DNA from: an uncultured Gemmatimonadaceae bacterium
Lineage (GTDB): Bacteria > Gemmatimonadota > Gemmatimonadetes > Gemmatimonadales > Gemmatimonadaceae
DNA: 64,000 nucleotides
Reading direction: 5' to 3'
Assembly (NCBI GenBank): GCA_963781585.1
Contig: CAWAGQ010000004.1
Location: 864,001-928,000, forward strand
The notes below the pieces were generated by a model, which had not been told where the DNA came from, searched no databases, and was given only the letters and a program-made list of their open reading frames with translations. The first letter of the stretch is position 1, and each line of letters starts with the position of its first letter. Below are positions 2,471 to 64,000 of this stretch, in pieces. Made by a program: the position numbers and the translations under genes.

Positions 2471-5379
2471 GATGTCGTTCCCATGAGGTCACGGACCACG
2501 GACGGTAGCATCGCCAACGCTTCGGGAAGGCGCGCGGCGTCTGGAATCCCGGCCTGCGCCATGTGAGGCTTTCCGCCGCCACGTCCGCCAGCGGCAGTGG
2601 CCAGCGCGCGCAACACCGCGTCGGCGCGGACGCCACGATCCCGCGCCGCGTCGGTGGCAACCACCAGCAGCGTCGACTTGCCGTCGGTGAACGTTGCGGC
2701 CAGCGCCGCCACGCCCGCGCCCATCTGTTCCCGCAGGGCGTCGCCTAACGTCTGCAGGGCCCGGACATCGTCGGCCGATACCGTGGCGCCCACGACTTTC
2801 ATTCCGTCCACCTGGGCGGCGGACGAAAGCAGCCGCCGCACCTCGTCGGTTCCGCCACGGAGCGCATCCTCCAGCCGCTTCTCCAGCGCCCGCCGGTCTT
2901 CCACGATCGCCTCAGCGCGCTTCACCACCGTGTCCGGAGTTGCCTTCAGCAGGTCAGATACCCGCAGCAGGCTTCGGTCCCTCTGGCGCAGCCATTCGAA
3001 CGCGCGCGGGCCGGTCAGTGCTTCGATCCGGCGCACGCCTGCCGCCACTCCGGTTTCGCCGATGATGTGGAAGAGCCCGATCTGGGCCGTGTTCCGGACG
3101 TGTGTACCACCACACAGCTCGAGCGAGATGCCGGGAATGCGAACGACGCGCACCACCGCCCCGTACTTCTCGCCGAACAACGCCATCGCACCCTCGGACC
3201 TGGCCTCTTCGAGCGGCTTCTCCTCGAAGAGTACGTCGGCGCCCGCCCAGATCGAGCGATTGACCCGCTCCTCGACGTCTTCCAGGGCTTCCGCACTCAC
3301 GGGTCCGTGGTGCGTGAAGTCGAAGCGCAGCCGGTCCGGAGCGACGAGGGATCCCGCCTGATGCACGCCCTTGCCCAGCACCGCCTGCAACGCCGCCTGC
3401 AACAGGTGAGTCGCCGTGTGGTTCCGCTCGGTGTCGCGCCGCCGATCGGTCGGCACGCGCGCCACCGCGGTGCCGAAATGCAGCGTCCCCGTGAGCCGAC
3501 CGATCGCCGCGTTTCGACCCTGGATCTTGCGCACGTCCTCGACGTCCACGCGCCAGCCGTCACCGACGATCTCCCCGCCGTCAGAGATCTGCCCACCGGA
3601 CTCGGCGTAGAACGGCGTCTCGCGCAGCAGCACCGCCACGCGCCCATCGTCGAGGTGTCGCACGGCCGTCACCTCGGATTCCACCTCGACGCTGTCGTAG
3701 CCCACGAACCTGGCGTCGGGCAGGCCCGATCCGGGGTGCGGCGCTGTATCGGAGTGACCAGCCACTTCACCTCGTCCGTCGGCGCTGTCGCCGGGGCCAG
3801 CGGGTGGTTTCACCGCCGGCAACCCGGGGCGAAGTGGGGTGCCGGCAGGGATCGATGCCGGCGTCCGTACCTTCCACTTCAATTCATCCGCCAGCTCGTC
3901 GCCGGACACCCCGAGCTTCCTGGACTTTCGCTCCTCCTGCGACTGCACGCGCTGCGCCTCGAGCGCCGTCTCGAACCCCGAGATGTCGACCGTGTAGCCG
4001 CGCTCGCGCGCCATCAGCTCGGTGAGGTCGATCGGGAACCCGTACGTGTCGTACAGCCGGAAGGCGTCTTCGCCGCTCACGGTGCCACGGATCTGGCTGG
4101 AACCCTGCGTGGTGTGTTCCGGTGCGACCTCCTCGAAGCGTTTCATCCCCGCGTCGATCGTTGTCAGAAAGCGCTCCTCCTCGGCGCGCGTCGTCTCGGT
4201 GATGTGCGTCGCGCGCTGATCCAGCTCAGGGTAGACGTCGCCCATCAGCTCGATGACCTTCGCCACGATCTGCACCAGCGTCGGCTCGCGACGGCCCAAT
4301 AGCCAGGCATGACGCACCGCGCGACGCAGGATCCGGCGCAGCACGTACCCTCGTCCGTCGTTGGAGGGGAAGACGCCATCGGCCAGGAGGAACGCGACGG
4401 CTCGGGCGTGGTCGGCGATCACACGAAACGAGGCCGGGGTGACGGCATTTGGCACCACCGAAAGGCCGCCCTTCGCACCCCGCACGGCGATCCCCGTGCG
4501 GCTCTCGTCGCTCTCGCGGCCCCAATATTCGATACCGACGGCGTGCTCGACGGCCGCGATGAGCGGCGCGAAGACGTCGGTGTGAAAGATCATCGTCACG
4601 CCCTGCGTGAGCGCGGCAATGCGCTCGAGCCCGGCGCCGGTGTCGACCGAAGGCCGCGGAAGGGGCACCAGCGTGCCATCCGCCTGCCTGTCGTACTGCA
4701 TGAACACGAGGTTCCAGAACTCCAGGAACCGATCGTTCTCCGAACCCGCGACGAACGCGTCGAGTGAGAACTCGTCGCGGTCCAGTTCCGTCCACTCGCC
4801 CACCACGCCGTCCGGAACGCTCCAGTCACCGGCAACATGGGCCACATCGACGAAGATCTCGGAGCACGGACCGCATGGTCCCGTGTCGGCCATTTGCCAG
4901 AAATTGTCCGAGTCGCCCAGTCCGTAGATCCGCGAATCGGGCAGACCGGCGATCTCACGCCAGAGCGCGCGCGCCTCTTCGTCGCTGTGATGCACGGTGA
5001 CCCGGAGATACTTCGGGTCGAGCTTCAGCTCGGTGGTCACGAACTCCCACGCGAAGCGGATCGCATCGCGCTTGAAGTAGTCGCCGAACGAGAAGTTGCC
5101 CAGCATCTCGAAGAAAGTGAGGTGCCTGGCAGTGTGTCCCACCTGCTCGAGGTCGTTGTGCTTTCCGCCGGCGCGAACGCACTTCTGGGAAGTGGCGGCG
5201 CGTCGTCCGAACGGCGTCGTCTCCAGTCCGAGAAAGACCTTCTTGAACTGCACCATGCCCGCGTTGGTGAAGAGCAGCGTGGGATCGTCCGCGGGCACGA
5301 GAGAGGAGCTCGGGCGCACGGCGTGGCCATTGCGTTCGAAGTAGCCAAGGAAGCGCGTGCGGATCTCGTTGGCGAGCAT
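2467..5379 (-). CDS. alaS: alanine--tRNA ligase
   Basis: DPTLLFTNAGMVQFK, HLTFFEMLGNFSFGDYFK, editing-domain HTATHLL and ELCGGTH, C-terminal GGRGGGKPHMAQAG. Confidence 0.98.
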   Translation of the reverse strand: MLANEIRTRFLGYFERNGHAVRPSSSLVPADDPTLLFTNAGMVQFKKVFLGLETTPFGRRAATSQKCVRAGGKHNDLEQVGHTARHLTFFEMLGNFSFGDYFKRDAIRFAWEFVTTELKLDPKYLRVTVHHSDEEARALWREIAGLPDSRIYGLGDSDNFWQMADTGPCGPCSEIFVDVAHVAGDWSVPDGVVGEWTELDRDEFSLDAFVAGSENDRFLEFWNLVFMQYDRQADGTLVPLPRPSVDTGAGLERIAALTQGVTMIFHTDVFAPLIAAVEHAVGIEYWGRESDESRTGIAVRGAKGGLSVVPNAVTPASFRVIADHARAVAFLLADGVFPSNDGRGYVLRRILRRAVRHAWLLGRREPTLVQIVAKVIELMGDVYPELDQRATHITETTRAEEERFLTTIDAGMKRFEEVAPEHTTQGSSQIRGTVSGEDAFRLYDTYGFPIDLTELMARERGYTVDISGFETALEAQRVQSQEERKSRKLGVSGDELADELKWKVRTPASIPAGTPLRPGLPAVKPPAGPGDSADGRGEVAGHSDTAPHPGSGLPDARFVGYDSVEVESEVTAVRHLDDGRVAVLLRETPFYAESGGQISDGGEIVGDGWRVDVEDVRKIQGRNAAIGRLTGTLHFGTAVARVPTDRRRDTERNHTATHLLQAALQAVLGKGVHQAGSLVAPDRLRFDFTHHGPVSAEALEDVEERVNRSIWAGADVLFEEKPLEEARSEGAMALFGEKYGAVVRVVRIPGISLELCGGTHVRNTAQIGLFHIIGETGVAAGVRRIEALTGPRAFEWLRQRDRSLLRVSDLLKATPDTVVKRAEAIVEDRRALEKRLEDALRGGTDEVRRLLSSAAQVDGMKVVGATVSADDVRALQTLGDALREQMGAGVAALAATFTDGKSTLLVVATDAARDRGVRADAVLRALATAAGGRGGGKPHMAQAGIPDAARLPEALAMLPSVVRDLMGTTS

Positions 5380-5386
5380 AGAGGCA

Positions 5387-5392
5387 AATATA
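5387..5392 (-). promoter_or_regulatory. putative -10 element of a leaderless alaS transcript
   Basis: TATATT-N7-ATG on the minus strand, with no SD between the hexamer and the start codon. Confidence 0.5.
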
Positions 5393-5407
5393 CGAGGAAG
5401 CGGCCAG

Positions 5408-6230: not shown

Positions 6231-7277
<1,047 letters not shown>

Positions 7278-12349: not shown

Positions 12350-13519
12350 CTACTTGGAGTCCCTCTGAAATTCGTCCCACGACGTGTCGCTCGATGCCGC
12401 CACCCCTTGTACCCGGAGCGCGAACTCGCTCGGGTTCGACGCGTAGAACAGCGCGCTCTCGTAGGAAATGACTCCCTTCGTGTACCAGAGCATCAGGGAC
12501 TGGTCGAAGCTCTGCATGCCGTACTGCGCGGTCCCTTCCTTGATGAGATCCGGAATATTGAGGGTCTTCGTCACATCGCGAATCTGGTCTCGCACGGCGG
12601 CGGTGTTGATCAGGATCTCGCACGCCGGAACGCGGCCCGGGCGATCGCACCGGGGGACCAGCCGCTGCGACACGACTGCGGTCAGCGCACTGGACAGGGC
12701 GTACCGCACCTCGTTCTGCTGGTGCGGCGGATAGAACGAGAGAATGCGATTGATGGTCTGGGTGGCGTCGGTCGTGTGCAGAGTCGAGAACACCAGGTGA
12801 CCGGTGTCGGCCGCCTTGAGGGCCGTGTCGAGCGTGTCGGGATCGCGAATTTCACCGATCAGGACGACGTCCGGGTCCTGGCGGAGCACCCGTCGCAGCG
12901 CCTGCGCAAAACTCCCGGTATCGGTGCCGATCTCTCGCTGGTTGATGTGGCACTTGAGGTCGCGATGCAGGAATTCGATCGGGTCCTCGATAGTGATGAT
13001 GTTCGCGTATCTCCGCTCGTTGATCAGCTGGATCATCGACGCGAGCGTGGTGGACTTGCCCGAGCCGGTCACACCCGTCACGAGCACCAGACCTCGAGGA
13101 GACAGCGACACCGATTCGACGATGGCCGGCAGGTTGAGCTCGCCGATCGATCGCGCCTGATGCGGAATCGTGCGGATGGCGAAGGCGATCGTCCCGCGTT
13201 GCTGGTACGCGTTGACGCGAAAGCGACCGATTCCCGGAACACCGGTGGCGAAATCCGCCTCCCGGTATTCGGTGAATTCCTTCACCTGCTTGGGCGACAT
13301 GCTCTCCTTGGCGAGCGCGTTCAGGTCCTCCGGCCGCAACGCCGGCAACGGCAGCGGGGACAGATCGCCGTGGATACGAAGGGTCGGTGGACGTCCGACC
13401 TTGAGGTGAAGATCGGAGGCGCCCAGCTGCACCATCTGCTGGAGAATCGCCTTGAAGTTGAAGGGAGGGCGCGCCGCGCTGTGAGCGGTCGCGTCGAGGC
13501 CCTGAACCGAACTAGCCAT
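12350..13519 (-). CDS. pilT: PilT/PilU family type IV pilus retraction ATPase
   Basis: [57 protein letters not shown]. The PilT AIRNLIRE motif reads AVRDQIRD, so PilT versus PilU is uncertain. Confidence 0.88.
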   Translation of the reverse strand: MASSVQGLDATAHSAARPPFNFKAILQQMVQLGASDLHLKVGRPPTLRIHGDLSPLPLPALRPEDLNALAKESMSPKQVKEFTEYREADFATGVPGIGRFRVNAYQQRGTIAFAIRTIPHQARSIGELNLPAIVESVSLSPRGLVLVTGVTGSGKSTTLASMIQLINERRYANIITIEDPIEFLHRDLKCHINQREIGTDTGSFAQALRRVLRQDPDVVLIGEIRDPDTLDTALKAADTGHLVFSTLHTTDATQTINRILSFYPPHQQNEVRYALSSALTAVVSQRLVPRCDRPGRVPACEILINTAAVRDQIRDVTKTLNIPDLIKEGTAQYGMQSFDQSLMLWYTKGVISYESALFYASNPSEFALRVQGVAASSDTSWDEFQRDSK

Positions 13520-15565: not shown

Positions 15566-17634
15566 TTCTTCTTCAGTCCGTCGAGCCAGGTGTTGAATTG
15601 CTGAATGTCCTTCGCCCGCTCATCGGCGACGGACTCCGTTCCGTCCGTAGTCGGAGTCTCGCCCGGCTGCGCGTCATAGAACGCGTCGAGGGTTGGCGCC
15701 GCCGCCGGCTCTTCGTGGAAGAGATGGTCGAGCGAGAGTTCGCGCTGCGAGACGCGAGACGGCCGACCCACTGACGGCATTCCGTTCGAGAAAGCAGCCG
15801 CCAACGAGGCAGCCGCTGAATCCTCCTGCGGGGGCGGCGGCGCGCCAAACAGCTCGGTCAAGCCGGGTGATCCTGACGGCAGTCCAGGCAGGCTCAGGTC
15901 GGTTGCAGCGTGAGGCTGATTCTCCGTGGAGGCCGACGCGAGAGTATCGGACGGCGGGGCCGCCGACTCGGCCGCCAGCATGTCGGGGCCGTCGTGTGGC
16001 GCCCGCCTGGGATCCGCCGTGCGATGGCGCTGGTGCGGAATCCGACGGGCCAGCAATCCGAAGAACGTGCGCACCGATTGCGCGGCCATTTCTCCGCCCG
16101 CGACGCGGTGCGACGCGGGAGTCGCAACGAGCGCCTCGGCGCCCGCACCGGTTTGAAGCCCCTCTATGAGACCTCGAAGAGTATCGTCTGACGGATTGCG
16201 GCTGAGCAACTCCCTGTAGATCTCGAGCGCCTCTTCGCGAAACCCCTGTTCGAGGTACAATTCCGCAAGCGTTTCCGTTGCGAAGGGAGCCAGTGCAGGC
16301 CGGTCCGGCGGTGGCGCGCTCGTATATGCGATGGGTGTTTCCCACGCATCAGATTGGGGTAGTCCGTGAACGTCGTCGTCGACCTGGTCGGCGCGCTCGA
16401 GGTGAACTCCCTGATCAGGCTGGTCGGCGCGCTCGAGGTGAACATCCTGATCAGGCTGGTCGGCGTGCTCGAGGTGAACATCCTGATCAGGCTGGTCGGC
16501 GTGCTCGAGGTGAACACCCTGATCAGGATGGTCGGCGTGATCAGGCTGGTCGCCGTAGTCTGGCAGTTCGAGTGGCGCGGACGCGGCGGCGTCTGATGGC
16601 GTGAGGCCTTCCATTGCGGACTCGGCCACCCCGTGAGCGGCGGTTCCGAAAAGCGCTTCGATGTCATCCTCTGCCGGGCCCGCGCTCACCGACTCTTCCT
16701 CGTCCAGAGGGAATGCGAGGGTATCGTCGTCGGCATCCGTATCGAACGGGCCATCGAACCAGTCGTGCGGCGCCGCGTCGGAGTCCGGTTCGGATGTATC
16801 GGAAGCGGGGCCATCCCAAGAGGTGTCCAGGCCCGCATGAGCGTCGTGGGATTCCGCTGGCGGACCGAAGGCTGAGTCGTCGGCACGATCGGCTGCGTCG
16901 GCCGCGCCGGTCTGATGCGACGAGAGCCACGAAGTCGATGACACATCCTGCTCGTCCGCCGGAGGTGGTGTATCCACCGTCCCGGGCCAGACCGCCTCTT
17001 CCGCCAGAGAGTCGCTGGAAACAGCTAGCGGTTCCGAGTTCGCGTCGGCAAGCGGCTCCGCCGCAGCCGACACATCCATCGGCGGATTGGCGGGAGTCGA
17101 TGCGTTCTCCGACTCGGCGTTGTGCCACGACTCCCCGTGGGACACGGCTACGGCCCCGGCGTCAGCCGCGATTGCCGTATCCGGTGAGGAATCAGCGCGG
17201 TCCCCCTCGGTCGACGCGTGCCCCTCGTCGTTAGGTTCGTCTTCGAGTCCGGCCATGATGGCGGCGATCTCGCTGTTCCGCGGATCGGCGTCGAGCACGC
17301 GCTGATACCAGGTCCGCGCATCGTCGCGGTCTCCGCGCTCACGCGCGATGTCACCCATGTAGCGAAGCGCGATGAGATTCTCGGGATCGAGCCCGAGGGC
17401 GGACTCGAACGCCGAGCGCGCGCCGTCGAGGTCCGCCAGATCGAAGAGCGCCTGGGCCAGCACAATGTGACCGCTGACGTGCCCCGGTTGCGACGCAAGC
17501 TGCGAACGACAGATGTCGATCGCCTGCGTCAGGTCTCCGAGTTTCCTCAGTTCGTTCGCAAGTGGCGCGAAGTACCGGCGGGGATTCTCGTCGAATTTCT
17601 GCTTCAGCTCTTCGATTCGTACTGAGGTGGCCAT
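15562..17634 (-). CDS. TPR protein with long acidic disordered linker (690 aa)
   Basis: N-terminal TPRs ([11 protein letters not shown]...[13 protein letters not shown]), Asp/Ala/Pro-rich middle, [16 protein letters not shown]-terminal FNTWLDGLK helix. Confidence 0.8.
16384..16551. repeat. 36-bp tandem repeat (4 copies plus a partial) encoding HLE(H/R)ADQPDQ(D/G)V
   Basis: Unit ctggtcggcg(c/t)gctcgaggtgaac(a/t)(t/c)cctgatcagg at 16384, 16420, 16456 and 16492, then a degenerate copy. In frame, no spacers. Confidence 0.92.
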
Positions 17635-20039: not shown

Positions 20040-20321
20040 CTAGAAGAGCGATCGCGCGATCAGGTAGGCGATCAGTACCCCGACCAGACTCAGTAGCGAC
20101 ACGTCGAGGGCGATGGGCCCCAACGCGAACTTCAAGATAATCAAGTCTACCTGAATCGGACCTAACTGGGGATGTACTCCCGTGGTCATGAATTCCTTTA
20201 CAGCCCCAACCGGCAGGAACTTGCGGGCAAAGTGGGTCATGAAGCCACCCACGATGAAGCCTATGGAGAGCACCACGGCATGGAAGAGGGGGCGCCGCCT
20301 GGTCGAGCCCTTGTTGATCAT
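20040..20321 (-). CDS. small membrane protein (DUF4321-like)
   Basis: Two hydrophobic segments, coupled to its neighbours. Family recalled from memory, not searched. Confidence 0.65.
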   Translation of the reverse strand: MINKGSTRRRPLFHAVVLSIGFIVGGFMTHFARKFLPVGAVKEFMTTGVHPQLGPIQVDLIILKFALGPIALDVSLLSLVGVLIAYLIARSLF

Positions 20322-36314: not shown

Positions 36315-37640
36315 TTACCGGCTGCGAAGAGGAGACGACCACGCGCCGTACAGCGCTGCTCTGGACGCGTGCGTGAGTTGGCGAACTCGACCTGACTCCA
36401 TATCGACCACGAACAGCTGGCGTGCTCCCGTCCGGTCGGACGTGAACACGATGTGCCGGCTGTCCGGTGCAAACCATGGATTCTCGTTGATGCCCTCACT
36501 CGTCAGCTGGCGAACCGTCCGATCGAGGAGGCTGATGGTCATGACCTGGAACCTGCCCGCGAGCTGCGACTGAAACGCGATCAACCGCCCATCCGGCGAC
36601 CAGTTCGGGTCCGTTCTATAGGACTGGTCACCGACCATGTAGGTCAAGATCTGAGCGTTCGTCCCATCGGCGTCCGAAATATACACCTCCGGATGCCCAT
36701 TCCTATTCGAGGTGAAGGCGATGCGCCTGCCGTCCGGGCTGAAGGTCGGTGAGGTGTTGATGAAATCTCCACGGGACACGGTCACCTTGCGTGCCGGCTC
36801 GGACCCGAATGGATCGGTCGCATAGAGATCGATCCCGTTCTCGGCGCCGTGCGCATACATGATCGTGGAGCCGTCGGGCGAGAAGACCGGCGTGCTGTTC
36901 ATGTTGCCGGGCGGGGTCCGCAAGACACGTGTGGCCCCCCCCAGCTCCCTGATGATGACCCGCTGGCCCTCGTCCCCCATCGTGATGTACGCGATGTGCG
37001 TCGCTTTGGGAAACCACACCGGCGACATCGCATCCGGCGCAGGCACCAGGAGCTTCGGATTCGCGCCGTCGCTGTCGACCTGCCAGACCCGCCCAGGATT
37101 GCCGTCGGCGTAGAGAATCCGCGTCGCCGCGATGCCCGGCACGCCGGTGAGCCAGCCCTCCATCTCATCGGCGACGTTATGCAGCGAAAGCCGCCACTCG
37201 GGGGAGAGCCCTGCGCCGTCCAGCGGGAAATCCTTCACCCGCTCCACCTTCTGCTGGGCAACGTCGTGCACCGCCACGTGGATCCCGAACGCGGTCATGG
37301 TCGGTTGCACCACCGCTGCCGCGCCCAGCCGCGCGAACAGCGGGTAGTTGGCCGACGAGCGGGACCCATCTGCCGAGCTGTCGGTCCCGGCCGAATCCCA
37401 GGCGATCACGTTGATGCGATCGCCGAAGTCGAAATCCCGCTGCAGAATCGTGCGGATCGAATCACCGACCTCGCCGTTGACCGGGAGCACCACGACACCC
37501 GGTTTCGTGCCGGGGGCGTACTTCAGGGCGAGCCGAACACCGCGCGTGCTGTCCTGCGCCACCGCGGAGCCCGCCAAGCACGCGAGCGCCGCCGCGGCCG
37601 CGAGGTGAACAACACTTCTGCGGAACGGCGAACGGGACAT
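36315..37640 (-). CDS. tolB: Tol-Pal beta-propeller protein TolB
   Basis: Signal peptide, PD40 repeats (PVFSPDG, PTFSPDGRRIAFTS, PNWSPDG), position in the operon. Confidence 0.9.
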   Translation of the reverse strand: MSRSPFRRSVVHLAAAAALACLAGSAVAQDSTRGVRLALKYAPGTKPGVVVLPVNGEVGDSIRTILQRDFDFGDRINVIAWDSAGTDSSADGSRSSANYPLFARLGAAAVVQPTMTAFGIHVAVHDVAQQKVERVKDFPLDGAGLSPEWRLSLHNVADEMEGWLTGVPGIAATRILYADGNPGRVWQVDSDGANPKLLVPAPDAMSPVWFPKATHIAYITMGDEGQRVIIRELGGATRVLRTPPGNMNSTPVFSPDGSTIMYAHGAENGIDLYATDPFGSEPARKVTVSRGDFINTSPTFSPDGRRIAFTSNRNGHPEVYISDADGTNAQILTYMVGDQSYRTDPNWSPDGRLIAFQSQLAGRFQVMTISLLDRTVRQLTSEGINENPWFAPDSRHIVFTSDRTGARQLFVVDMESGRVRQLTHASRAALYGAWSSPLRSR

Positions 37641-38782: not shown

Positions 38783-39505
38783 TCAGATGCGCTGCTCGCG
38801 CACCAGCAATGCCACGAGCTCGGAGCCGAAGCCATCCAGCTCGCCGTCGATCCGATTGAGCCGGGTGGCGAAGATGTTGTACGCGAACACCGCCGGGATC
38901 GCGACCGCCAGGGCCAGCGCCGTCGCCGTCAGCGCCTCGGCCACGCCGGGCGCGACCGCGCCGATATTCCCCGCGCCGCCCACCGCGATTCCGAGAAACG
39001 AGTGGATCACCCCGAGCACCGTGCCTAACAATCCGATCAGGGGGCTCACCGACCCGATGGTTCCGAGCCACGGCACGAAGTGCGCCAGTGCGTCGCGTTC
39101 GACCGCCATCTGCGAGTCCATGACTTCGCGAAGCGCCTCCACCTGGGCCGCGCTCAGGCGTGGCGTCCGCTCCGGAGTACCCACCAGCGCGGGCGTGGTT
39201 TCCGTGAGAAACAGCTGCGCGCGCTCGAAGACGCGCGTGAAGGGATTGGCCCGCCCCTTGGCGGCGAGACGCGCCACCTCAGCCAGGCTCTGTGCACGTT
39301 CGAACTGGCGCACGAACGACGCGCCGGTGCGCCGAACGCGCCGGTACTCGATCCACTTGGCGAACATGATGGTCCAGCTCACCAGCGACAGGAGTGCGAG
39401 CAGTGCAAGCACACCCTGGGTCACGGGGGTAGCCGAGGTAATCAGTTCGAGCGGCGTGGACGGAATCGCGCCGCTGACCTGTGCAAGGAGGGGAAACGGC
39501 ATCAC
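38783..39505 (-). CDS. tolQ: TolQ/ExbB/MotA proton channel
   Basis: LGTIGSVSPLIGLLGTVLGVI, VAPGVAEALTATA, AVAIPAV. Confidence 0.88.
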   Translation of the reverse strand: MMPFPLLAQVSGAIPSTPLELITSATPVTQGVLALLALLSLVSWTIMFAKWIEYRRVRRTGASFVRQFERAQSLAEVARLAAKGRANPFTRVFERAQLFLTETTPALVGTPERTPRLSAAQVEALREVMDSQMAVERDALAHFVPWLGTIGSVSPLIGLLGTVLGVIHSFLGIAVGGAGNIGAVAPGVAEALTATALALAVAIPAVFAYNIFATRLNRIDGELDGFGSELVALLVREQRI

Positions 39506-40646: not shown

Positions 40647-42017
40647 TCAGGGGAGTTTGGCGCTGACGCGCACGGGCATGCCGGGCGCGATGTCGCCGCG
40701 CTGCCGCCTGATGATCTTCGCCGTGGCAGTGCGCAGCCCCACGCGCAGCACTGTGGCGACCGCGATCTCGCCAGAGTGGAGCGCGGCGGTGTCCTCTCCC
40801 ACCGGGCCAAGAAGGGTGACCTGATCGCCCGGCTTCACCCCGGAAAGCGTGCCGAGATTCACGATCACATCGTACTGCAGCGAGGGGAGGAGCGCCGAGC
40901 TGCCGATCCACACTACTTCGCCGGTCGCTCCGTTCGAAACCGGGACTGGATGTGCCGGCGTCGTGTCGGCGGGCAGTGCCAGCGGGAACAGCTGATCGGA
41001 GCAGGACATCGTTCCGAACTGTGCGAGCACCGTGGCGCGTGTCGCGGTGCCAGCCCCGCCGCTATCGACTCTGACGATGCCAGTTGGGACCATGACGGTG
41101 CCCAGCCCTTCGAGTTGGGGACCAACGTGTGCCGCGAGCAGACGATCGCCCGCGGACACGGGGACAGCCTCGGGCGGCGCCAGCACCATGCGATCCCCAT
41201 AGCGCACGACCGACGAGGCGCCGCCTGCCGAGTCTCCGCTGGTGGAGAACGCGAGACATCGGCCGGCGCCCCACATCGCATCTGCGCCCGGCCTCATGGT
41301 TCCCGGCGCGCCGCGGCTCGCGCCGCCTTGCACCCCTATCGCAATCCACTCGGCAGGCAGCACGAATGGCGCCGACACGTACTCCCAGGCCCGGACCGGA
41401 GCCGGCGGTGCCACTTCCGGCCCGATCGTGTCCGCGCCTAACGACATGGCGGGCGGGGGCGCCGCACCCGGCTCCTTGCCGAAGAAGATCGACCGCCCGG
41501 CCATCGTGGGCGCGCCCGGGGCCGGCGAGGCCGCTTCCAGTACCCCCGGGTGCTCGACCGCCGCCTGGGGTGGCCCGGGTTTCTTCACCGCCACCGTCTT
41601 TCGCGCCCCTCCGCCGGCGGGCGGCGCGGCTGGTTTGCTCACGGCGGGTGGACGCTGCCCGCCGGCATTGCGAGGCGCCGAAGCCCGGTTGGATTCACCA
41701 CGGGCCGCCGTTCCCATCGGCGCCGACGGGCTGCGGGTCGCTGCCGAACGCCGCGCCCTCGGCGGCAACACCAGTCGCAGACCGGTCTCCAGCTGATTCG
41801 GCGACGTCACATGCTCCCGGTTCAGGGACAGTATCTCGGTCCACCGATGCCCGTCTCCCAGGGAGTCTTGGGCGATCCGCCAGAGCGTTTCACCCGCCTT
41901 GACCACATGACTGCGCGTCCCCGTCGCGGCAGGTTGCGCGCCTAACAGCGCGGGGGCCACCAGGGCCCCCGCGAGCAATGCTACCAGCCAATCAGAACGG
42001 AAGGTCGTCGTCCTCAT
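40647..42017 (-). CDS. LysM peptidoglycan-binding protein (TsaP-like architecture)
   Basis: Signal peptide, LysM (HVVKAGETLWRIA...LNR...LRLVLP), Pro/Ala linker, C-terminal beta domain (VIVNLG...GVKPGD...ATVLRV...ATAKI). Confidence 0.8.
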   Translation of the reverse strand: MRTTTFRSDWLVALLAGALVAPALLGAQPAATGTRSHVVKAGETLWRIAQDSLGDGHRWTEILSLNREHVTSPNQLETGLRLVLPPRARRSAATRSPSAPMGTAARGESNRASAPRNAGGQRPPAVSKPAAPPAGGGARKTVAVKKPGPPQAAVEHPGVLEAASPAPGAPTMAGRSIFFGKEPGAAPPPAMSLGADTIGPEVAPPAPVRAWEYVSAPFVLPAEWIAIGVQGGASRGAPGTMRPGADAMWGAGRCLAFSTSGDSAGGASSVVRYGDRMVLAPPEAVPVSAGDRLLAAHVGPQLEGLGTVMVPTGIVRVDSGGAGTATRATVLAQFGTMSCSDQLFPLALPADTTPAHPVPVSNGATGEVVWIGSSALLPSLQYDVIVNLGTLSGVKPGDQVTLLGPVGEDTAALHSGEIAVATVLRVGLRTATAKIIRRQRGDIAPGMPVRVSAKLP

Positions 42018-47541: not shown

Positions 47542-48711
47542 TCAGCGCGCATCACCCAGGCCGATCGCCAGTCCGATCGTCAGCACGCAGAGGACCGCGC
47601 CAAGCAGAAATGGCGACGCCATCCCGGCGTGATCGAACAGCACTCCGTCCCACCACGGGAACACTGCCCGCGCCACACCGCCAAACGTCTGCTGCACCCC
47701 CATGTAGAGGCCACGGCTCTCCTTCGGCACCACCCGCGACAGCAACGCCGTCACCCCGGGAAAGGTGAACGCCGTGCCTAACGGCATCAGGGTACATGCG
47801 ATCGCCAGCATCCCGTAACTCGCGGACACGGCGAACAGCGCCATGCCCCCAGCCAGCAGCGCCAGCCCGAGCCGAGACAGCCGCACCTCGCCCAGCCGTT
47901 TCACCGCCGGTCCGAGCAGCAGGAGCCGCGTGACCACCCCCATCGCGCCGAACCACATGAAGAAGTAGCCGATCGTCCGCTCGGTCACCGCGAACCGCCG
48001 TTCGAGGAACTGCGCAAATACCGCCGGCAGCCCGTAGAAAGCGCCGATCGCGATCGTGTAGGTCCAGATGAGGCGGGACGGAACCGACCACGGCCGGCCC
48101 ACGATCCGCCAGATCGCCTGACGAGGCGGCGGTCCCCGCATCTCCCCCGTGAGGGCCGTGCGGGAATCGTGCGATTCGCGCAGGTACCGCCACGCGAACC
48201 CCATGTTCACCGCGGCCACCGTCGCCGCTCCCAGCCCCGGCGCCGCCGGTCCCCACGCCGCGATCAGCAGCGACCCCAGCCCGGGGCCGAGGACGACTCC
48301 GAGACTCGTCGCCGCCGACAGCCAGCCGAGCGCCTTGGCGCGCTCGTCAGGCGGCGTGATGTCCGTGACATACGCCTGCACCACGCCCACCGTGCCGCCG
48401 CCCAGTCCCTGCACAACCCGCGACACGAGCAGCAGCCAGAAGCTCGTCGCGAACCCGAACACCACGTAGGCGATCGCCGATGCGCCGAGTCCGACCAGCA
48501 ACGTCGGTCGCCGGCCGCGGTGGTCCGAGAGCCGTCCCCACCAGGGCGCGCTCACCAGCTGGGCCACCGAGAAGATCCCGATCAGAATCCCGATCTGCGC
48601 GCTGCTCGCGCCCATCCGCTCGGCGTAGAACGGGAGCAGCGGAATGACCAGCACGAACCCGATCATGTCGACCAGGGCCGTCACCAGCAGGACGCCGAAG
48701 CGGGCGTCCAC
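47542..48711 (-). CDS. MFS transporter (TetA/DHA1-like)
   Basis: DMIGFVLVIPLLPFY, motif A GRLSDHRGRRP, about 12 TM segments. Confidence 0.92.
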   Translation of the reverse strand: MDARFGVLLVTALVDMIGFVLVIPLLPFYAERMGASSAQIGILIGIFSVAQLVSAPWWGRLSDHRGRRPTLLVGLGASAIAYVVFGFATSFWLLLVSRVVQGLGGGTVGVVQAYVTDITPPDERAKALGWLSAATSLGVVLGPGLGSLLIAAWGPAAPGLGAATVAAVNMGFAWRYLRESHDSRTALTGEMRGPPPRQAIWRIVGRPWSVPSRLIWTYTIAIGAFYGLPAVFAQFLERRFAVTERTIGYFFMWFGAMGVVTRLLLLGPAVKRLGEVRLSRLGLALLAGGMALFAVSASYGMLAIACTLMPLGTAFTFPGVTALLSRVVPKESRGLYMGVQQTFGGVARAVFPWWDGVLFDHAGMASPFLLGAVLCVLTIGLAIGLGDAR

Positions 48712-50900
48712 TACTCGTCGGACGTGATGTGCTCGCGGCGCGCGACTTCCTTGATGCCCTTCACCCGCCGCGCGGCCTTCATGATCTTCTGCAGGTGAGC
48801 GAGGTTTTCGACCTCGACCATCGCCGCGCCCGTCACGCGGCCATCTACCGAGCGGAGTTCCAGCGTCCGGATGTCGGTTCCGGTCGCGCTCACCGCCGCC
48901 GCCACGTCGGCGTACAACCCGCGTCGGTCGATCCCTTCGAGCACCAACCGGACGAGAAATCGCTCGCCGGCCTGCTCCACCCAGTCGATTTCGAGGCGGC
49001 GCTCGGGCTCGTGGGCGAGGAGGAGGAGGTTGGGGCAGTCGGCGCGGTGGATGCTCACCCCGCGTCCGCGGGTGACGTATCCCACCACCGCGTCGCCCGG
49101 CACGGGCTGACAGCACTGGGCATAGCGCACCATCAGGCCGTCGGCCCCCTGGATGCGCACGCCGCGCGAGGTCCCGCGCATGCGGTCCATGAGCCGCACC
49201 CGGTCCATCAGCCGCTCGAGCGGTGTGGCCCTGGGCTGGTGGTCGGGCGACCCCTCCTGCTCTGGATAGAGGAGCTTGAGCACCTGCCCGACGCTCAGGT
49301 CTCCCTGGCCGATCGACGCGATCAGGTGCTGGCCGTCGGTGAGCTTCAAGGTGGCGGCCGCGGCCTCGAGGGCGTCGTCCTTGAGCTTCGGAAGGCGCCG
49401 CTTGCGCACCTCACGCTCGAGGATCTCGCGCCCGACCCGTTCCGATGACTGGTGCTCCTCCTGCCGCAGCCACTGCCGGATCTTGTGGCGCGCGCGTCCG
49501 GTGTGGACATGCGCCAGCCAGTCACGGCTCGGCTTCGCGTTAGGCGAAGTGATGATCTCGACCGTCTCCGAGTTCCTGAGCTGCCTGGCGAGCGGCGCGA
49601 TCCTGGCGTTCACCTTGGCCCCGGCGCAGTGGAGCCCCACTTCGGTATGGACCGCGAACGCGAAGTCGATCGGCGTCGCCCCCCGGGGCAGCTGGATCAC
49701 GTCCCCGGTCGGCGTGAAGACGAAGATTTCGTCCTGGTACAGGTCGAGCTTGAGGAATTCCAGGAACTCCGCGGGATCCTTGGCGTCGAGCTGCAGCTTC
49801 AGCACCTCCCGGAACCACTGGAGATGGCGGTCCAACTCGTCGGCCGACTTGGCGTCGGTCTTGTAGCGCCAGTGCGCCGCGATCCCGAACTCCGCCGTCC
49901 GGTGCTGGTCGCGGGTGCGGATCTGGATCTCGTACAGCTGCTTGCCGGGTCCGAAGATCGTGGTGTGGAGCGACTGGTAACCGTTCGACTTCGGCTGCCC
50001 GATGTAGTCCTTGATCCGCTCCTGAAGCGGGGTCCAGCCGTCGTGGATGACGCCTAACGCATGGTAGCAGTCGGGGACCGTATTCACCAGCACCCGGATC
50101 GCCAGCAGGTCGTAGATCTCCTCGTATGGCCGCTCGCGCTTCTGCATCTTCCTGTAGATCGACCACAGATGCTTGGCCCGGCCCGTCACCTCCACGTCGG
50201 GGATGCCGGCCTCCTTCAGCACGCGCTCGAGGGGAGCCTGCAGTTGCGCGATCAGCGCCTCCCGCTCGGCGCGCTTGGCGGCCACCAGCTTCGCCAGCTT
50301 CCGGTACTCGTCGGACTCGAGGAACTTGAACGACAGATCCTCCAGCTCCCAGCGCATCTTCGCCATACCGAAGCGGTGCGCAAGCGGGGCGTACAGGTCC
50401 ATCGTCTCCAGGGCGATGCGGTGCTGCTTGTCCTCAGGCAGCGAGTCCAGCGTCCGCATGTTGTGGAGCCGGTCGGCCAGCTTGATGATGATGACCCGCG
50501 CGTCCCTGGCGATCGACACGAGAAGCTTGCGGTAGTTCTCGACCTGGCGCTCCTCGGTCGAGTGCATCGGCAGGTGTCCGATCTTGGTCAGCCCGTCGAC
50601 GATCTGGGCCATCTCCGGACCAAACTCCCGCTCCACGTCTTCGATCCGGACCGGGGTGTCCTCCACCACGTCGTGGATGAGCCCCGTGGCGACCGTGGCT
50701 GAATCCAGCTGCAGCTCCGCCAGGATCTTGGCGACCTCTACGCAGTGCGTGACGAACGGATCGCCGTTCCGCCGGAACTGCCCCTCGTGCGCCCGCGCAC
50801 TGAACCGATACGCACGCGCGAGCAGGTCCAGGTCGAGGCGCTCCGAAAGCGCCTCTCCCACGGTCCAGCCGGGGATGAGTTCGGTCAGCGTTGTTGCCAT
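48711..50900 (-). CDS. rel: bifunctional (p)ppGpp synthetase/hydrolase Rel/SpoT
   Basis: HDVVED hydrolase, KLADRLHNMRTL, PKSNGYQSLHT, TGS (TPIDFAFAVHT), CCQPVPGD, ACT domain. Confidence 0.96.
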   Translation of the reverse strand: MATTLTELIPGWTVGEALSERLDLDLLARAYRFSARAHEGQFRRNGDPFVTHCVEVAKILAELQLDSATVATGLIHDVVEDTPVRIEDVEREFGPEMAQIVDGLTKIGHLPMHSTEERQVENYRKLLVSIARDARVIIIKLADRLHNMRTLDSLPEDKQHRIALETMDLYAPLAHRFGMAKMRWELEDLSFKFLESDEYRKLAKLVAAKRAEREALIAQLQAPLERVLKEAGIPDVEVTGRAKHLWSIYRKMQKRERPYEEIYDLLAIRVLVNTVPDCYHALGVIHDGWTPLQERIKDYIGQPKSNGYQSLHTTIFGPGKQLYEIQIRTRDQHRTAEFGIAAHWRYKTDAKSADELDRHLQWFREVLKLQLDAKDPAEFLEFLKLDLYQDEIFVFTPTGDVIQLPRGATPIDFAFAVHTEVGLHCAGAKVNARIAPLARQLRNSETVEIITSPNAKPSRDWLAHVHTGRARHKIRQWLRQEEHQSSERVGREILEREVRKRRLPKLKDDALEAAAATLKLTDGQHLIASIGQGDLSVGQVLKLLYPEQEGSPDHQPRATPLERLMDRVRLMDRMRGTSRGVRIQGADGLMVRYAQCCQPVPGDAVVGYVTRGRGVSIHRADCPNLLLLAHEPERRLEIDWVEQAGERFLVRLVLEGIDRRGLYADVAAAVSATGTDIRTLELRSVDGRVTGAAMVEVENLAHLQKIMKAARRVKGIKEVARREHITSDE

Positions 50901-52069: not shown

Positions 52070-55000
52070 CTACGCGCTCGCCCCGTGGCACTTCTTGAAC
52101 TTTTTTCCGGATCCGCAGGGACAGGGGTCGTTCCTTCCCACGCTCGCCCAGTTCGCGTCGCCGGACGCGCCGCCCGCGCTGCGGATGCTGGTGCTCCCCA
52201 TCTGCGAAAGCGACTTCGTGCGCCCGGCTCCCACGACCAGCGGGTCCTGCCGCGCGGAGACAGTCTTCTTTGGCGGCTCGTCGGGCGCGACGTCCATCAC
52301 CGTCTGCTGGCCGTCACCGTCCAGCGACGCACCGGCGGCCACCGGCTCTTCGGCCGGGATGTCCTCGAGGATGCCTAACGCGTTGTAGCGGCGCTGCGGT
52401 GCGGCGGAAGGACCGCCGCCGCCCCCGGGGCCACGACCGCCGTCCCCCTGCGGCGCCGGCGTCGGCGGCCCGAATACGAGCTGTGCGCGAAGGAACCGTT
52501 CGGTGAACGTGGTGTGGATGTCGTTCATCAGGTCCACGAACATCGTGTACGCTTCCTGCTTGTACTCGATCAGGGGATCCTTCTGGCCCCACGAGCGATA
52601 GTGGATGGCCGCCCTGAGCTGGTCGAGGTCGTAGAGGTGGTCCTTCCACTTTTCGTCCAGGACGTTGAGCATCACAAGGGAGAGCAGCCGGCTGGCGAAG
52701 CCCTGACCCGTCTCGTCCTGCACCTCGTTCAGGCCGGTCTCCTTCACCTCGAACGCCTTCAGCGCCGCGCCCAGGGCTGCTGTCGACAGACCTTCCACGG
52801 TGGTCGGCGAGTCGTCGGCCTCGAGTTCCGGCACGACCAGCAGGTAGTGCATCAGCAGTTCCTGCCGCAGGAGCCCCAGATCCCACTGGTTTGCGTCTTC
52901 GTATTCGCCGGCAAAATCCTCCACGCGCTTTTGCACGGCCTTCTCGACCATCTTCAGCGCTTCGCCGCGCAATTCCTCCCCCCCTCGAGGGCGAACGAGC
53001 GCAGCGAGTAGATCACCTCGCGCTGCTGGTTCATCACGTCGTCGTATTCGAGGAGGCGCTTGCGGGCCTGGAAGTTCTGCAGTTCGACCCGCTTCTGCGC
53101 CTGCTCGATGGACCGGGTGATGAGGGGATGAGTAAGGACTTCCCCTTCCTGGGCACCCAGCCGGTCCATCAGGCGCGCGATGCGCTCCGAGCCGAAGAGC
53201 CGCATCAGATCGTCTTCCAGGGAGAGGAAGAATTGTGACGCGCCGGGATCGCCCTGGCGGCCGGCCCGACCGCGCAGCTGTCGATCGATGCGACGTGACT
53301 CGTGGCGTTCCGAGCCGACGATGTGCAACCCGCCGCACTCCTCGACGTCGATCGGGTTCCCTTCCGGATCCTTGACGCGGGAGGGCTTCGACACGGTGAT
53401 GCCGGCCCCGAGTTTGATGTCGGTTCCGCGACCGGCCATGTTGGTCGCGATTGTCACCGCACCCGGCTGGCCGGCATTGGCGACGATCTCGGCCTCGCGC
53501 TGGTGGTACTTCGCGTTGAGTACACTGTGCGGCAGGGCGGCGCGCTTGAACATGCGCGACAGCGTTTCCGACACCTCCACGCTCACCGTCCCGACCAGTA
53601 CCGGGTAGCCGAGGTCGTGCAGTCGCCGCGTTTCCTCGACGATCGCGTTGTATTTCTCGCGCCGGGTCTTGAAGACGAGGTCCTGCCGGTCGTCGCGGAT
53701 CACCGGGCGGTTGGTCGGGATCACCGCCACGTCGAGCTTGTAGATCTGGTGGAATTCGGTCTCCTCGGTCTCGGCGGTGCCGGTCATGCCGGCGAGCTTT
53801 TCGTACATGCGGAAGTAGTTCTGGATGGTGATGGTCGCGAGCGTCTGCGTCTCGCCCTTGACCTTCACGCTCTCCTTGGCTTCCACCGCCTGGTGCAGCC
53901 CCTCCGACCAGCGGCGGCCCGGCATGGTACGGCCGGTGAACTCGTCGACGATCAGGACCTCGCCATCCTGGACCACGTAGTTGACGTCCTTCTCGTAGAG
54001 CGCGTGCGCCCGCAGGAGCTGGTGGACGATGTGGAGCTTCTCGCTCTTCATCGCGTATTCGGTCTCGATCGACTTCCGCGCGTCGAGCTTTTCCTGCGGC
54101 GACATCTCTCCGTCGTGTTCGATCCGGTGGATTTCGGTGGAGATATCGGGGAGCTCGAACTGGTCGTGATCGGACGGCGAGAGCGCGTCGACACCCCGAT
54201 CGGTGAGGTGCACGGTGTGGCCCTTCTCGTCCAGCACGAAGTACAGGTCGTTCTCCAGCTCCCGGTACTGCTGTTTGTTCGGCGACACCTTCCGGTCCGC
54301 CAGATAGTCCAGCTCCATCCGGTTCACCAGCTGCTTCACGCCGGGCTCCTGCATGGACTTGAGCAGCCGCTTGTTCTTCGGATGGCCGAGCTGCGCCTTG
54401 TACAGCGCCAGGGCCGCCGCCGCCTGGTCGCCCGTTTCCAGCGCGCGTTCGCCCTCACCCACCAGCGCGTTCACCACCTCGGTCTGCCGGCGGAACATCC
54501 GCTCGACCGCGCTGTTGTGGTCCGCGAACATCTCGTCGTTTTCGTTGCCCACCGGACCCGAGATGATCAGCGGCGTTCGGGCTTCGTCGATCAGCACGGA
54601 GTCCACTTCGTCCACGATCGCGTACCAGTGGGTCTTCTGCACCCGCTGGTCCAGCGAGATCACCATGTTGTCGCGCAGATAATCGAAGCCGAATTCGTTG
54701 TTGGTGCCGTAGGTGATATCGCACTCGTAGGCGGCGCGGCGGGCCGGGCTCCCCGGTTCGGTGTCATCGATGCACCCGACGGTGAGGCCCAGGTATTCAT
54801 ACACATGGCCCATCCATTGCGAGTCGCGACGCGCCAGGTACGAGTTGACCGTGACCAGATGCGAGCCTTTTCCCGGTAACGCGTTCAGGTACAGTGGCAG
54901 CGTCGCCACCAGCGTCTTGCCTTCGCCGGTGGCCATCTCGGCGATGCGCCCCAGATGGAGCTCGATGCCGCCCATCAGCTGGACGTCATACGGAACCATA

Positions 55001-55425
55001 TCCCAGGCCATCTCGCGGCCGGTGACCGTTATCGTGGTGCCTAACAAGCGGCGGGCCGCTTCCCGGACCGTGGCGAACGCCTCGGGCAGGATCTGGTCGA
55101 GCGTGTCGGCAATCACCTTTCGCAGTTCGGCATCCACCCCGCCCCGCCCGTCGACCCCTGTGAGGTCGTTGTCCAGCCGGTCCCGGTCGGCCGGATCCTT
55201 GGTGATCTTCTTGAGTTCCTTCAGCTCGGCGACGCGGCGCTCGAGTGCCTCGGTGCGGTCGTGCAGGATGCCCCGGAGCTTGGCGGTCTGACCCCGCAGC
55301 TCGTCATCGGACACTCCCTGCAACCGCGCGTAGTGCGCGTTGATCTCGTCGACAATGGGTTGAATCCGGCGACGCTCGCGCTCGTGTCGCGATCCGAAGA
55401 GCTTTCCGGCTACCTGCTTGAGCAT
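52070..55425 (-). CDS. secA: preprotein translocase subunit SecA, frameshifted at 52978-52984 as given
   Basis: N-part ORF 52954-55425 ([38 protein letters not shown]). The C-part is in another frame ([39 protein letters not shown]). One extra G in the G7 run joins them into a 1118-aa protein. Confidence 0.95.
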
Positions 55426-57053: not shown

Positions 57054-58010
57054 TCAGGCGCTTCGCGGGCGTCGGGCGCCGGGGCCAAGCGACCGGAAGT
57101 ACTCGATGGTTCGCGTCACGCCCTCGCGGAGCGGGACCCGTGGTTCCCAGCCGAGCGTCTCCCTGGCCCTGGAGATGTCGGGCTTGCGCACCTTGGGATC
57201 ATCGACCGGCAGGGGCTCGTAGTGGATCGGGGAGGTGGTCCCGGTGAGGTCCACGACCAGCTCAGCCAGCTGCCGCACGGTGTACTCGTCGGGATTCCCG
57301 ACATTGGTCGGGGCCGCCGTGCCGTGCTGGAAGAGTCGGTAGATGCCATCGATCTCGTCGTCGACGTAGCAGAACGAGCGGGTCTGGCTGCCGTCGCCAT
57401 AGATCGTGATCGGCTCATCGCCCAGCGCCTGAATGATGAAGTTCGACACCACTCGGCCGTCGCGCGGCCGCATGCGCGGACCGTAGGTGTTGAAGATCCG
57501 GACGATCCGCGTGTCGAGACCGTGCACCCGGTGGTACGCCATGGTCATGGCTTCGGCAAAGCGCTTGGCTTCATCGTACACGCCCCGTGGCCCGATCGGA
57601 TTGACGTTGCCCCAGTACGACTCGGGTTGCGGATGGACCAGCGGGTCGCCGTAGACCTCGGAGGTGGACGCCAGGAAGAAGCGAGCCCCCTTGGCCTTGG
57701 CGAGGCCTAACGCGTTGTGCGTGCCTAACGCCCCGACCTTGAGCGTGGCGATCGGATGTTCCAGGTAATCCACCGGGCTGGCGGGAGACGCGAAGTGGAG
57801 CACGCCGTCCACCGGTCCGGCGACGTACATGTAGGTCGAGACGTTGTGCCGGAAGAACTCGAAGTCCGGTCGTCCCATCAGGTGGGCGATGTTGTCCGGG
57901 TTCCCGGTCACGAAGTTGTCGATGCCCACCACCCGATGCCCGTCGGCGAGGAACCGGTCGCTGAGGTGCGAGCCGAGGAACCCCGCCGCCCCGGTGATGA
58001 CGACTCTCAT
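57054..58010 (-). CDS. uxs: UDP-glucuronate decarboxylase (UDP-xylose synthase family)
   Basis: [44 protein letters not shown]. Confidence 0.9.
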
Positions 58011-60686: not shown

Positions 60687-60724
60687 TCCTGGTTCGGGCA
60701 CAAGGTTCACCGATGTAGGGACGC

Positions 60725-61837: not shown

Positions 61838-61896
61838 GTGGGTCAGGAGTGAGAGGTACGGCCTGGCGGTTGGATCCGGGTCGGACAGACGCGGAA

Positions 61897-62943: not shown

Positions 62944-63599
62944 CGCCCGCCCGCCGGCGTGAGCGTCTCGTGGCCGAGGGTGTACTGGCGGCCGCACACG
63001 CTGCAGGAGATGGCGCGGGCCGACGTTTCAGCCCTCGTGCGGCCCCGCACTGCTTCCACGCTCCCGTCCTCCGCTGCCCGGCCGCCGTCCCCAGGCACGC
63101 GAAGGACCTCGCCGCATTCGCACACCCACCCCACCCGCTTTGCGGGGACTCCCACGGCCAGGCCGTACGCCGGCACGTCTTTCGTCACTACCGCGCCGGC
63201 GCCCACGAACGCGAATTCTCCCAGCGTCACGCCGCACACCACCGTGGCGTTGGCCCCGATGGTCGCGCCGCGACGCACCAGCGTCTGGCGGTAGTCGTGC
63301 TTCCGCGATACGTGGCTTCGGGGATTGAGCACGTTGGTGAACACCATCGACGGCCCGCAGAACACGTCATCCTCGAGCACCACGCCCTCGTAGATCGAGA
63401 CATTGTTCTGGACCTTGACGTTGTTGCCGATCCGGGTGCCCGGCATCACCACCACGTTCTGACCGAGGTTGCAGCGCTCACCGATCACCGCCCCCGGCAT
63501 CACGTGGCAGAAGTGCCAGATCCTGGTGCCGGCTCCCACGATGGCCCCTTCATCCACGAATGAGCTGGGATGGATGAATGGCGGCGCTTGAGGGCTCAC
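62940..63599 (-). CDS. hexapeptide-repeat N-acetyltransferase (WbpD/WlbB-like)
   Basis: [47 protein letters not shown]. Confidence 0.9.
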
Positions 63600-64000
63600 G
63601 GTGCGCCCTCGATGGTCAGCGGGGCGCGCCGCGCGACGGGGAGCGCTGACGCGGACGGTACAGCATCGGCGCGCGCCGGACTGCCATCGGACCGCGGCGC
63701 CGCCGCGCCTGCCTCGGCACCCGACAGTCCCGCGTCGCTGCTCGCGCGCACCACCTCGTGCCACTCCTGCAGCGAGCGCACCACGGGCCTCCGCGACCGC
63801 AAGGCGAGAATCGCGTCGCATGCCGCGCTGGCCGCCGACATGGTGGTGGTATACGACAGGCGCTGGGCGATGGCCGTCCGCCGCAGCTGGTAGTCGTCGT
63901 ACTGGGCGTGCTTGCCTAACGGCGTATTGATCAGGAGCTGCACCTGACCGTTGACCATCAGATCGATACCGTTCGGCCGCCCTTCGTGCAGCTTGCGCAC
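63596..64000 (-). CDS. carB: carbamoyl-phosphate synthase large subunit, C-terminal MGS domain (5' part outside window)
   Basis: [12 protein letters not shown]...VQLLINTP...DDYQLRRTA...YTTTMSAA. Confidence 0.85.

Follow-up and report, generated by a model that had tools for sequence, protein, structure and literature searches.

A non-palindromic octamer maintained as a DNA word in spite of codon preference in some lineages of Gemmatimonadaceae

We analyzed a 64-kb stretch of Gemmatimonadaceae DNA (hereafter, the window; G+C content 66%), in which nearly all genes lie on the minus strand, and found in it a short word built on the hexamer GTTAGG (CCTAAC on the complementary strand). The full word is the non-palindromic octamer CGTTAGGC (reverse complement, GCCTAACG), with a strict GTTAGG core and softer flanks. 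It is lineage-specific and strand-neutral, persists as a DNA word in spite of codon preference, is conserved at orthologous sites, and has been lost wholly in some sister lineages. That the word is selected or driven as DNA we regard as nearly certain. By analogy with the DNA uptake sequences (DUS) and uptake signal sequences (USS) it may be a self-DNA tag, an explanation that we favor while giving it somewhat less than even likelihood.

The hexamer occurs 15 times in the window, 13 times on the minus strand and twice on the plus strand, at exactly the positions reported in an earlier note made by inspection of the same DNA; the recount also gave the same 12 extensions to GTTAGGC and three to GTTAGGT. 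Dinucleotide-preserving shuffles yielded 6.67 ± 2.31 hexamers (maximum 13; none of the 100 shuffles reached 15) and 0.85 octamers against nine observed, and the octamer is the top-ranked 8-mer of the window in an order-3 Markov scan of all 8-mers. Synonymous-codon shuffles that keep all codon counts are conservative here, because the TTA codons themselves are retained. They produced 2.25–2.52 hexamers against 14 observed in called genes and 0.39–0.57 octamers against nine, and in neither case did any of 1000 shuffles reach the observed value. A codon-preserving shuffle had been named beforehand as the refuting test for selection, and the enrichment stands under it. Chance and base composition as the origin of the word are ruled out by the two kinds of shuffle.

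Reading frames in the window were set by Pfam matches on 112 candidate open reading frames (ORFs). The same frames are recovered by a self-written gene caller based on G+C content at third codon positions (GC3), which was also used for the loci of relatives; it clips 5′ ends, and hence a mild non-coding excess of the word was not relied on. Twelve of the 15 copies are read as NNG-TTA-GGY (11 with GGC and one with GGT), one as GTT-AGG in recA, and two as antisense CCT-AAC in rel and in a 690-aa TPR gene, and the three encodings proposed earlier are thereby confirmed. TTA makes up 16 of the 1938 leucine codons of the window, and 12 of these 16 lie within the motif. Since just 162 of the 1938 leucine codons precede glycine, this share is far from chance. 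The other four TTA codons are in accB, hutH, secA, and bamD; the earlier note had counted only the one in accB. No tRNA genes, sought for the sake of tRNA-Leu (UAA), were found in the window.

Shuffles of the window predict 75.5 copies of the tetramer TTAG/CTAA; the actual number is 21, of which 19 are GTTAG and 15 are GTTAGG. Outside the motif the tetramer is strongly avoided, with exactly six copies on both strands (about six had been estimated) against about 75 from dinucleotide shuffles. Inside genes, 16 copies were observed, 14 of them within the motif, against 31–32 from codon shuffles.

For comparison, 80 loci were retrieved with the window Rel protein; individual loci are given below by L numbers. 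Nearly all of them are labelled as metagenome-assembled genomes (MAGs) of Gemmatimonadaceae or Gemmatimonadota, the top match is 88% identical, and the window's own genome is not among them. The compared DNA is a single MAG-derived syntenic neighbourhood, ±10 kb around rel. The loci were divided, after the counts had been seen, into a motif-bearing set of 14 sources including the window (13 relatives; 314,845 bp in all) and a motif-poor set of 49 loci longer than 8 kb (873,909 bp). Excluded from both sets were L037 and L051 (52–53% GC), the short or intermediate loci L001, L028, L044, and L047–L050, and nine more loci of at most 8 kb.

The octamer occurs 128 times in the 315 kb of motif-bearing sequence and twice in the 874 kb of the 49 motif-poor relatives. 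Of the 53 scanned loci of relatives that exceed 14 kb, 12 have the octamer as their first-ranking 8-mer by the order-3 Markov model (L003, L005–L009, L017, L038, L042, L046, L056, and L058), and every leading differential 6-, 7-, or 8-mer between the two sets is a sub-word or an extension of it. The density of GTTAGG is 0.14–1.9 per kb in motif-bearing sources, and most other relatives have 0–1 copies per 22 kb. The survey of relatives, which had been suggested as a check, thus shows the octamer as the dominant over-represented word in 13 relatives and strengthens the DNA-level inference. No alternative "dialect" word was conspicuous in the order-3 Markov scan of motif-poor relatives, apart from the widespread palindrome TTCATGAA.

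Alignment of the copies defines the limits of the word. A cytosine precedes and another follows the hexamer in approximately 75–85% of copies, with no conservation further out. The word had previously been described as the heptamer GTTAGGY; the hexamer core of that description holds, and the full word is extended to the octamer, accompanied by a secondary form. This form, CGTTATGC (G to T at position 6), has 36 copies in motif-bearing and eight in motif-poor DNA, an approximately 12-fold enrichment, and may be a tolerated variant or a dialect. It is seen in L003 (the most, seven copies), L008, L009, L038, and others, and at position 37175 of the window. One-off variants cluster at positions 1 and 8, as in TGTTAGGC (21 copies) and CGTTAGGT (22 copies), against one copy of each in motif-poor DNA, and these T-for-C changes are the commonest neighbours of the octamer rather than depleted ones. 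Variants in the core are rare, with the exception of CGTTATGC and CGTCAGGC. A repeat element of the miniature inverted-repeat transposable element or repetitive extragenic palindromic type was rejected, as flank conservation is absent beyond approximately 8–10 bp.

Evidence for a DNA-level word comes from its use in different reading frames. Motif-bearing relatives use the word in each of the four frames that avoid a stop, and on both strands. Its copies in the 14 motif-bearing sources comprise 172 coding ones, 32 non-coding ones, and 11 that overlap a stop codon; the caller marks 90% of this sequence as coding. Seven of 38 TAA stops are inside CCTAAC and five of 80 TAG stops are inside GTTAGG in these sources, compared with none of 83 and two of 170, respectively, in motif-poor ones. 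Examples of genuine stop codons supplied by the word are found in L009 (positions 548, 2853, and 20946), L005 (1208), and L046 (17031).

We further defined an opportunity as a position where the encoded peptide permits the octamer via synonymous change, and counted the fraction used. In the 13 motif-bearing relatives the octamer fills 42 of 145 opportunities of the type xCG-TTA-GGC, 15 of 105 of the type xxC-GTT-AGG-C, 21 of 91 of the type xGC-CTA-ACG, and 19 of 35 of the type xxG-CCT-AAC-G; in the 49 motif-poor relatives the respective values are 0 of 450, 0 of 334, 1 of 332, and 1 of 86. Occupancy of allowed positions by frame is thus 14–54% in the former and 0–1% in the latter. Leucine codons follow the same division. 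In motif-poor relatives TTA constitutes 0.54% of leucine codons, and four of 143 (3%) stand before GGN; in motif-bearing relatives the share is 2.31%, with 85 of 167 (51%) before GGN; and in the window, by automatic gene calls, it is 0.78%, with 11 of 15 before GGN.

An illustrative case is provided by the Rel peptide YHALG[V/I]. GTTAGG is present at this site in 16 of the 81 rows of the Rel alignment, in 13 of them as GCG-TTA-GGC, in L038 as ACG-TTA-GGC, and in L049 and L050 with TTA-GGG. The same peptide is encoded as GCG-CTC-GGC in most motif-poor rows shown, including L004, the sister of motif-bearing L003. Selection on the peptide is ruled out, as relatives encode identical peptides without using the word. 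Peptides encoded by the motif have a mean identity of 0.45 to their motif-poor orthologues (131 sites), against 0.49 for 396 control sites in the same genes. They are about as conserved as the controls, and therefore the word is mainly accommodated where the protein tolerates it. The earlier proposal that the DNA word and not the peptide is selected is borne out both by these motif-poor species and by the antisense, intergenic, and stop-codon copies in the bearers.

The word has no strand polarity of its own. The raw counts are biased, with 13 of the 15 window copies on the gene-bearing strand and a 124:76 ratio (approximately 62%) in the 13 relatives. When use of the octamer in relatives is normalized by opportunity, 57 of 250 positions are filled in sense frames and 40 of 126 in antisense frames, and the non-coding and stop-overlapping copies are divided 21 to 20 between the plus and minus strands. 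Opportunities are more numerous on the sense strand, owing to the frequency of the peptide [S/P/T/A]-Leu-Gly. Hexamer use by frame in the window (TTA-GG, 11 of 118; CCT-AAC, 2 of 22; GTT-AGG, 1 of 143; CTA-AC, 0 of 78) has the same ranking as in relatives at a lower intensity. As antisense filling is at least equal to sense filling and the frame ranking is shared, the 13:2 bias is explained by coding opportunity and gene orientation, a confounding that the earlier note had rightly suspected.

Orthologous copies are maintained between species. Eight of 12 octamer sites of L006 are kept in L008, seven of 10 sites of L009 in L006, four of five sites of the window in L002, and three of five sites of L017 in L009, against background 8-mer identities of 18, 17, 19, and 9%, respectively. 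None of four window sites and none of two L003 sites is kept in L004. The gaps between copies are more even than random: the mean coefficient of variation over 10 sources is 0.771, compared with 0.912 ± 0.062 in simulations, and 32 of 5000 simulated sets were as low. In three species copies are located directly upstream of the start codon of an orthologous gene (L006, positions 1681 and 1692; L008, 1420; L009, 583), partly in tandem with a spacing of 10–11 bp.

A possible explanation of these properties is an uptake tag. In this scenario, a sequence-specific protein belonging to a DNA-uptake or recombination route would recognize the octamer in duplex DNA, and word-bearing fragments would be taken up or recombined preferentially. 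The word would then spread, by genome-wide drive or selection, into every tolerant position, mostly synonymous sites such as [S/P/T/A]-Leu-Gly, overriding selection against the rare codons TTA, AGG, and CTA, and lineages that lose the reader protein would lose the word. More tentative still is the stronger form of this explanation, in which the octamer, recognized in some Gemmatimonadaceae by a receptor associated with pili or uptake, would add a third family to the DNA uptake sequences, one that arose independently and would be the first outside Proteobacteria.

The octamer resembles DUS and USS in several features. These are also short non-palindromic words present on both strands without replication polarity; they lie mostly in genes in the least costly frames, reach approximately 1–2 copies per kb, are lineage-specific, and have enriched one-off variants, which in our octamer fall at the flanks. 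Accumulation of uptake sequences by mutation and uptake bias is described by Bakkali (2007; PMC1939737). As circumstantial evidence, a retraction ATPase of type IVa pili, of the PilT/PilU family, is encoded in the window (445.9 bits; cutoff, 319.1) and is the only competence-type component seen in it. The differences are that DUS and USS are 9–12 bp long, whereas our word has 8 bp and lacks extended flanks; that it almost never forms inverted terminator pairs; that it is very patchy among close relatives; and that its core is AT-rich in a genome of 66% GC.

Several observations weigh against an uptake tag. At 8 bp, the word does not reach the length of DUS and USS. Terminator-forming inverted pairs, which are common for DUS, are nearly absent here, with one convergent pair among the listed close pairs. 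In a full-text search on natural transformation and competence in Gemmatimonas, none of the 12 papers listed, out of 2342 matches, mentions the genus. The word is weaker and more frame-biased in the window than in relatives, with eight of 39 opportunities filled in xCG-TTA-GGC and one of 59 over the other three frames, and the DNA of relatives comes from one neighbourhood, within 10 kb of rel, and from MAGs. The phylogenetic distribution is also awkward. In a quick IQ-TREE phylogeny of Rel, which is a tree of one gene and not of species, most motif-bearing rows belong to a single group of 20 rows with weak support, in which L004, L071, and L080 are nested with no GTTAGG, and a second, distant cluster with the word is formed by L017, L042, L044, and L058. 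With 16 bearers and 52 non-bearers, this very patchy trait needs at least five changes on the Rel tree, and monophyly of the bearers, a group defined after the tree had been seen, is rejected (approximately unbiased test, p-AU = 5.6e-6). The sister loci L003 and L004, with a support of 100* in the Rel tree, have 12 and zero copies of GTTAGG in 22 kb, respectively. Such patchiness suits a mobile determinant, for example a methyltransferase, better than it suits an uptake specificity based on pili, for which inheritance in Neisseriaceae and Pasteurellaceae is broadly vertical.

The main competitor of the uptake tag is a word linked to methylation, as an analog of HIP1 (GCGATCGC), the highly iterated palindrome of cyanobacteria. 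A DNA methyltransferase restricted to certain lineages, and possibly mobile, would then have its target within the octamer, and the word would be made and kept either by a bias of repair or conversion that depends on methylation or by selection favoring methylated sites. We consider this rather unlikely, although far from negligible. HIP1 and the alternate HIPs are likewise hyper-abundant octamers in coding sequence, with conserved sites, that are absent from some lineages, and deviations of both words concentrate at the first and last bases. Presence in coding and non-coding DNA, conservation between species, and single-nucleotide deviations at the terminal positions are all described for HIP1 by Elhai (2015; PMC4390886) and Xu et al. 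(2018; PMC5861425), and the enrichment of its flank variants by the former. The patchy distribution, with at least five changes, also suits an easily gained or lost gene. However, our octamer is non-palindromic and belongs to another phylum, and a methyl mark on one strand could not serve ordinary strand discrimination. The change from CTC to TTA takes two substitutions including a transversion, and thus no single mutational bias can make the word. Correction toward C of the very-short-patch type predicts depletion of the T variants at positions 1 and 8; this depletion is not seen, these variants being the commonest (21 and 22 copies). No DNA methyltransferase domain was found among the 112 ORFs of the 64-kb window, and the octamer is not known to have a cognate methyltransferase. 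A role of HIP1 in transformation or uptake has been proposed (PMC13756078; see also a 2024 preprint, bioRxiv 10.1101/2024.09.10.611283), and in this respect the HIP1 analogy converges with the uptake-tag reading of the octamer.

Another scenario, which we find improbable, is a site bound by an abundant protein of chromosome architecture or of the nucleoid, with selection acting on how such sites are spaced along the chromosome. The even gaps, the conservation of sites between species, and the absence of polarity are consistent with such a site, and a role of this kind is argued for HIP1 by Xu et al. (2018; PMC5861425). On the other hand, close relatives differ more than 10-fold in the density of the word, and one sister species has none, which is odd for an essential architectural role. 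Moreover, the known site-specific nucleoid proteins (ParB, MatP, Noc, and SlmA) use few and mostly palindromic sites.

A polar signal of the Chi or FtsK-orienting (KOPS) type, by which RecBCD/AddAB or FtsK would be oriented with respect to replication, is very unlikely. The raw skew suggests it, because 13 of 15 window copies and approximately 62% of copies in relatives are on the gene strand, which in the window is G-rich by GC skew and would be the leading strand, replication direction being read here from GC skew and gene orientation alone. Like Chi, the octamer is a species-specific non-palindromic word in the range of 5–8 bp and is over-represented in core genes; its density in the window (approximately one per 4.3 kb) is close to that of Chi in Escherichia coli, and the window contains recA, recX, and an ftsK gene with the gamma domain. 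The difference is that no orientation preference is left after correction for coding opportunity or in non-coding DNA, as detailed above, and the very strong leading-strand skew of KOPS and of SpoIIIE recognition sequences (SRS) is absent. Since there is no polarity beyond coding opportunity, a Chi or KOPS role is disfavored. Among the analogies drawn earlier, uptake sequences and HIP1 thus remain the best, and those that require polarity are not supported.

Even less probable is a core site of a tyrosine recombinase. The letters do match the integron consensus, GTTAGGC fitting R′ (GTTRRRY) and GCCTAAC fitting R″ (RYYYAAC), and GCCTAAC is given as an attC R″ box in the relevant part of PMC12901181. 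However, the copies are solitary and lie within conserved housekeeping genes, and an abundance of insertion sites within essential genes would be harmful. The divergent R″...R′ arrangement is found in just two of 13 close adjacent pairs, the flanks have no attC-like architecture or conservation, and a scan of the 112 window ORFs gave no integrase domain. Finally, an effect on translation, through rare-codon TTA regulation or a favored Leu-Gly codon pair, fits the 12 of 15 window copies that are sense-strand TTA-GGY and is practically without a chance, being refuted by the antisense and intergenic copies and those on stop codons in relatives, by CTC-GGC at the YHALG Leu-Gly in most motif-poor rows shown, and by the four of 143 TTA codons followed by GGN in motif-poor relatives.

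The octamer has no prior description in the literature searched. Motif strings matched just the integron paper and a primer in full-text literature, subscription-only papers and supplements being outside this search; full-text searches also found no paper combining Gemmatimonadetes with "uptake sequence" and no methylation motif for the Gemmatimonad group. Very few groups are known to have genome-wide signature words that prevail over codon choice (DUS, USS, HIP1, and Chi), and each of these opened work on DNA uptake, recombination, or chromosome biology. Gemmatimonadota is an abundant and poorly studied soil phylum known mostly from MAGs. Sister lineages with and without the word, such as L003 and L004, provide a natural experiment, so that the responsible gene could be found by phylogenetic profiling and the function (uptake bias, methylation, or protein binding) could be tested in the few cultured members. 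The word could also serve as a lineage marker for binning and could improve genetic tractability, as is reportedly the case for HIP1 in cyanobacteria. If the octamer does form an uptake-sequence family, its patchy presence would map the lineages of soil Gemmatimonadaceae that exchange DNA by sequence-biased natural transformation.

The individual copies in the window are as follows. On the minus strand, CGTTAGGC is found in alaS (2743..2750; ACG-TTA-GGC, Thr-Leu-Gly; Pfam tRNA-synt_2c), in a LysM-domain gene (41436..41443; TCG-TTA-GGC), in a gene for a major facilitator superfamily transporter (47776..47783; CCG-TTA-GGC), in rel at the invariant peptide YHALG (50052..50059; GCG-TTA-GGC), in the C-terminal part of secA (52373..52380; GCG-TTA-GGC), and at the C-terminal end of carB, in an ORF with the MGS-like domain (63914..63921; CCG-TTA-GGC, scored so on assignment of this site, at 63915, to the carB C-terminal ORF). 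Two further copies, both GCG-TTA-GGC, are 18 bp apart in one gene for an NAD-dependent epimerase/dehydratase (57723..57730 and, as the second of the pair, 57705..57712), and the pair with the same spacing is also found in L006. On the plus strand, a copy antisense to rel (49538..49545; CCT-AAC) is a site where seven of the 81 Rel rows have the word.

The remaining six copies deviate from the octamer. CGTTAGGT is located in recA on the minus strand (6860..6867; GTT-AGG, Val-Arg; Pfam RecA) and, on the plus strand, antisense to the 690-aa TPR gene (17229..17236; CCT-AAC, Pro-Asn; Pfam TPR). AGTTAGGT is in a DUF4321 gene (20160..20167, minus strand; CAG-TTA-GGT; Pfam DUF4321). TGTTAGGC, always on the minus strand, is found in tolQ (39023..39030; TTG-TTA-GGC; Pfam MotA_ExbB), which matches NCBIfam TolQ with E = 3e-51 and 174.2 bits, under the curated cutoff of 221; in the N-terminal part of secA (55039..55046; TTG-TTA-GGC); and at the 5′ end of the LysM ORF near the ssb stop codon (41940..41947; CTG-TTA-GGC). 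The coding status of this last copy is uncertain, which qualifies the earlier statement that all 15 copies are inside genes.

Some other features of the window deserve mention. The secA gene is split into two overlapping frames (52070–55425, minus strand) with a junction near 52960–52990, at a seven-G run GAGGGGGGGAGG. The two parts are in one frame in 60 of the 61 relatives where both were found. The split is probably an assembly error in homopolymer length; a recent frameshift is less likely. The PilT/PilU-family type IVa pilus ATPase gene (12350–13519, minus strand) separates accC from accB, two genes that normally share an operon. The palindrome TTCATGAA has three copies in the window (58656, 58830, and 59905) against 0.3 expected, all in the two genes for UDP-sugar dehydrogenases. 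In many loci of Gemmatimonadaceae (e.g., L016, L065, L010, and L012) it ranks among the 8-mers with the strongest over-representation, whether or not these loci have CGTTAGGC.

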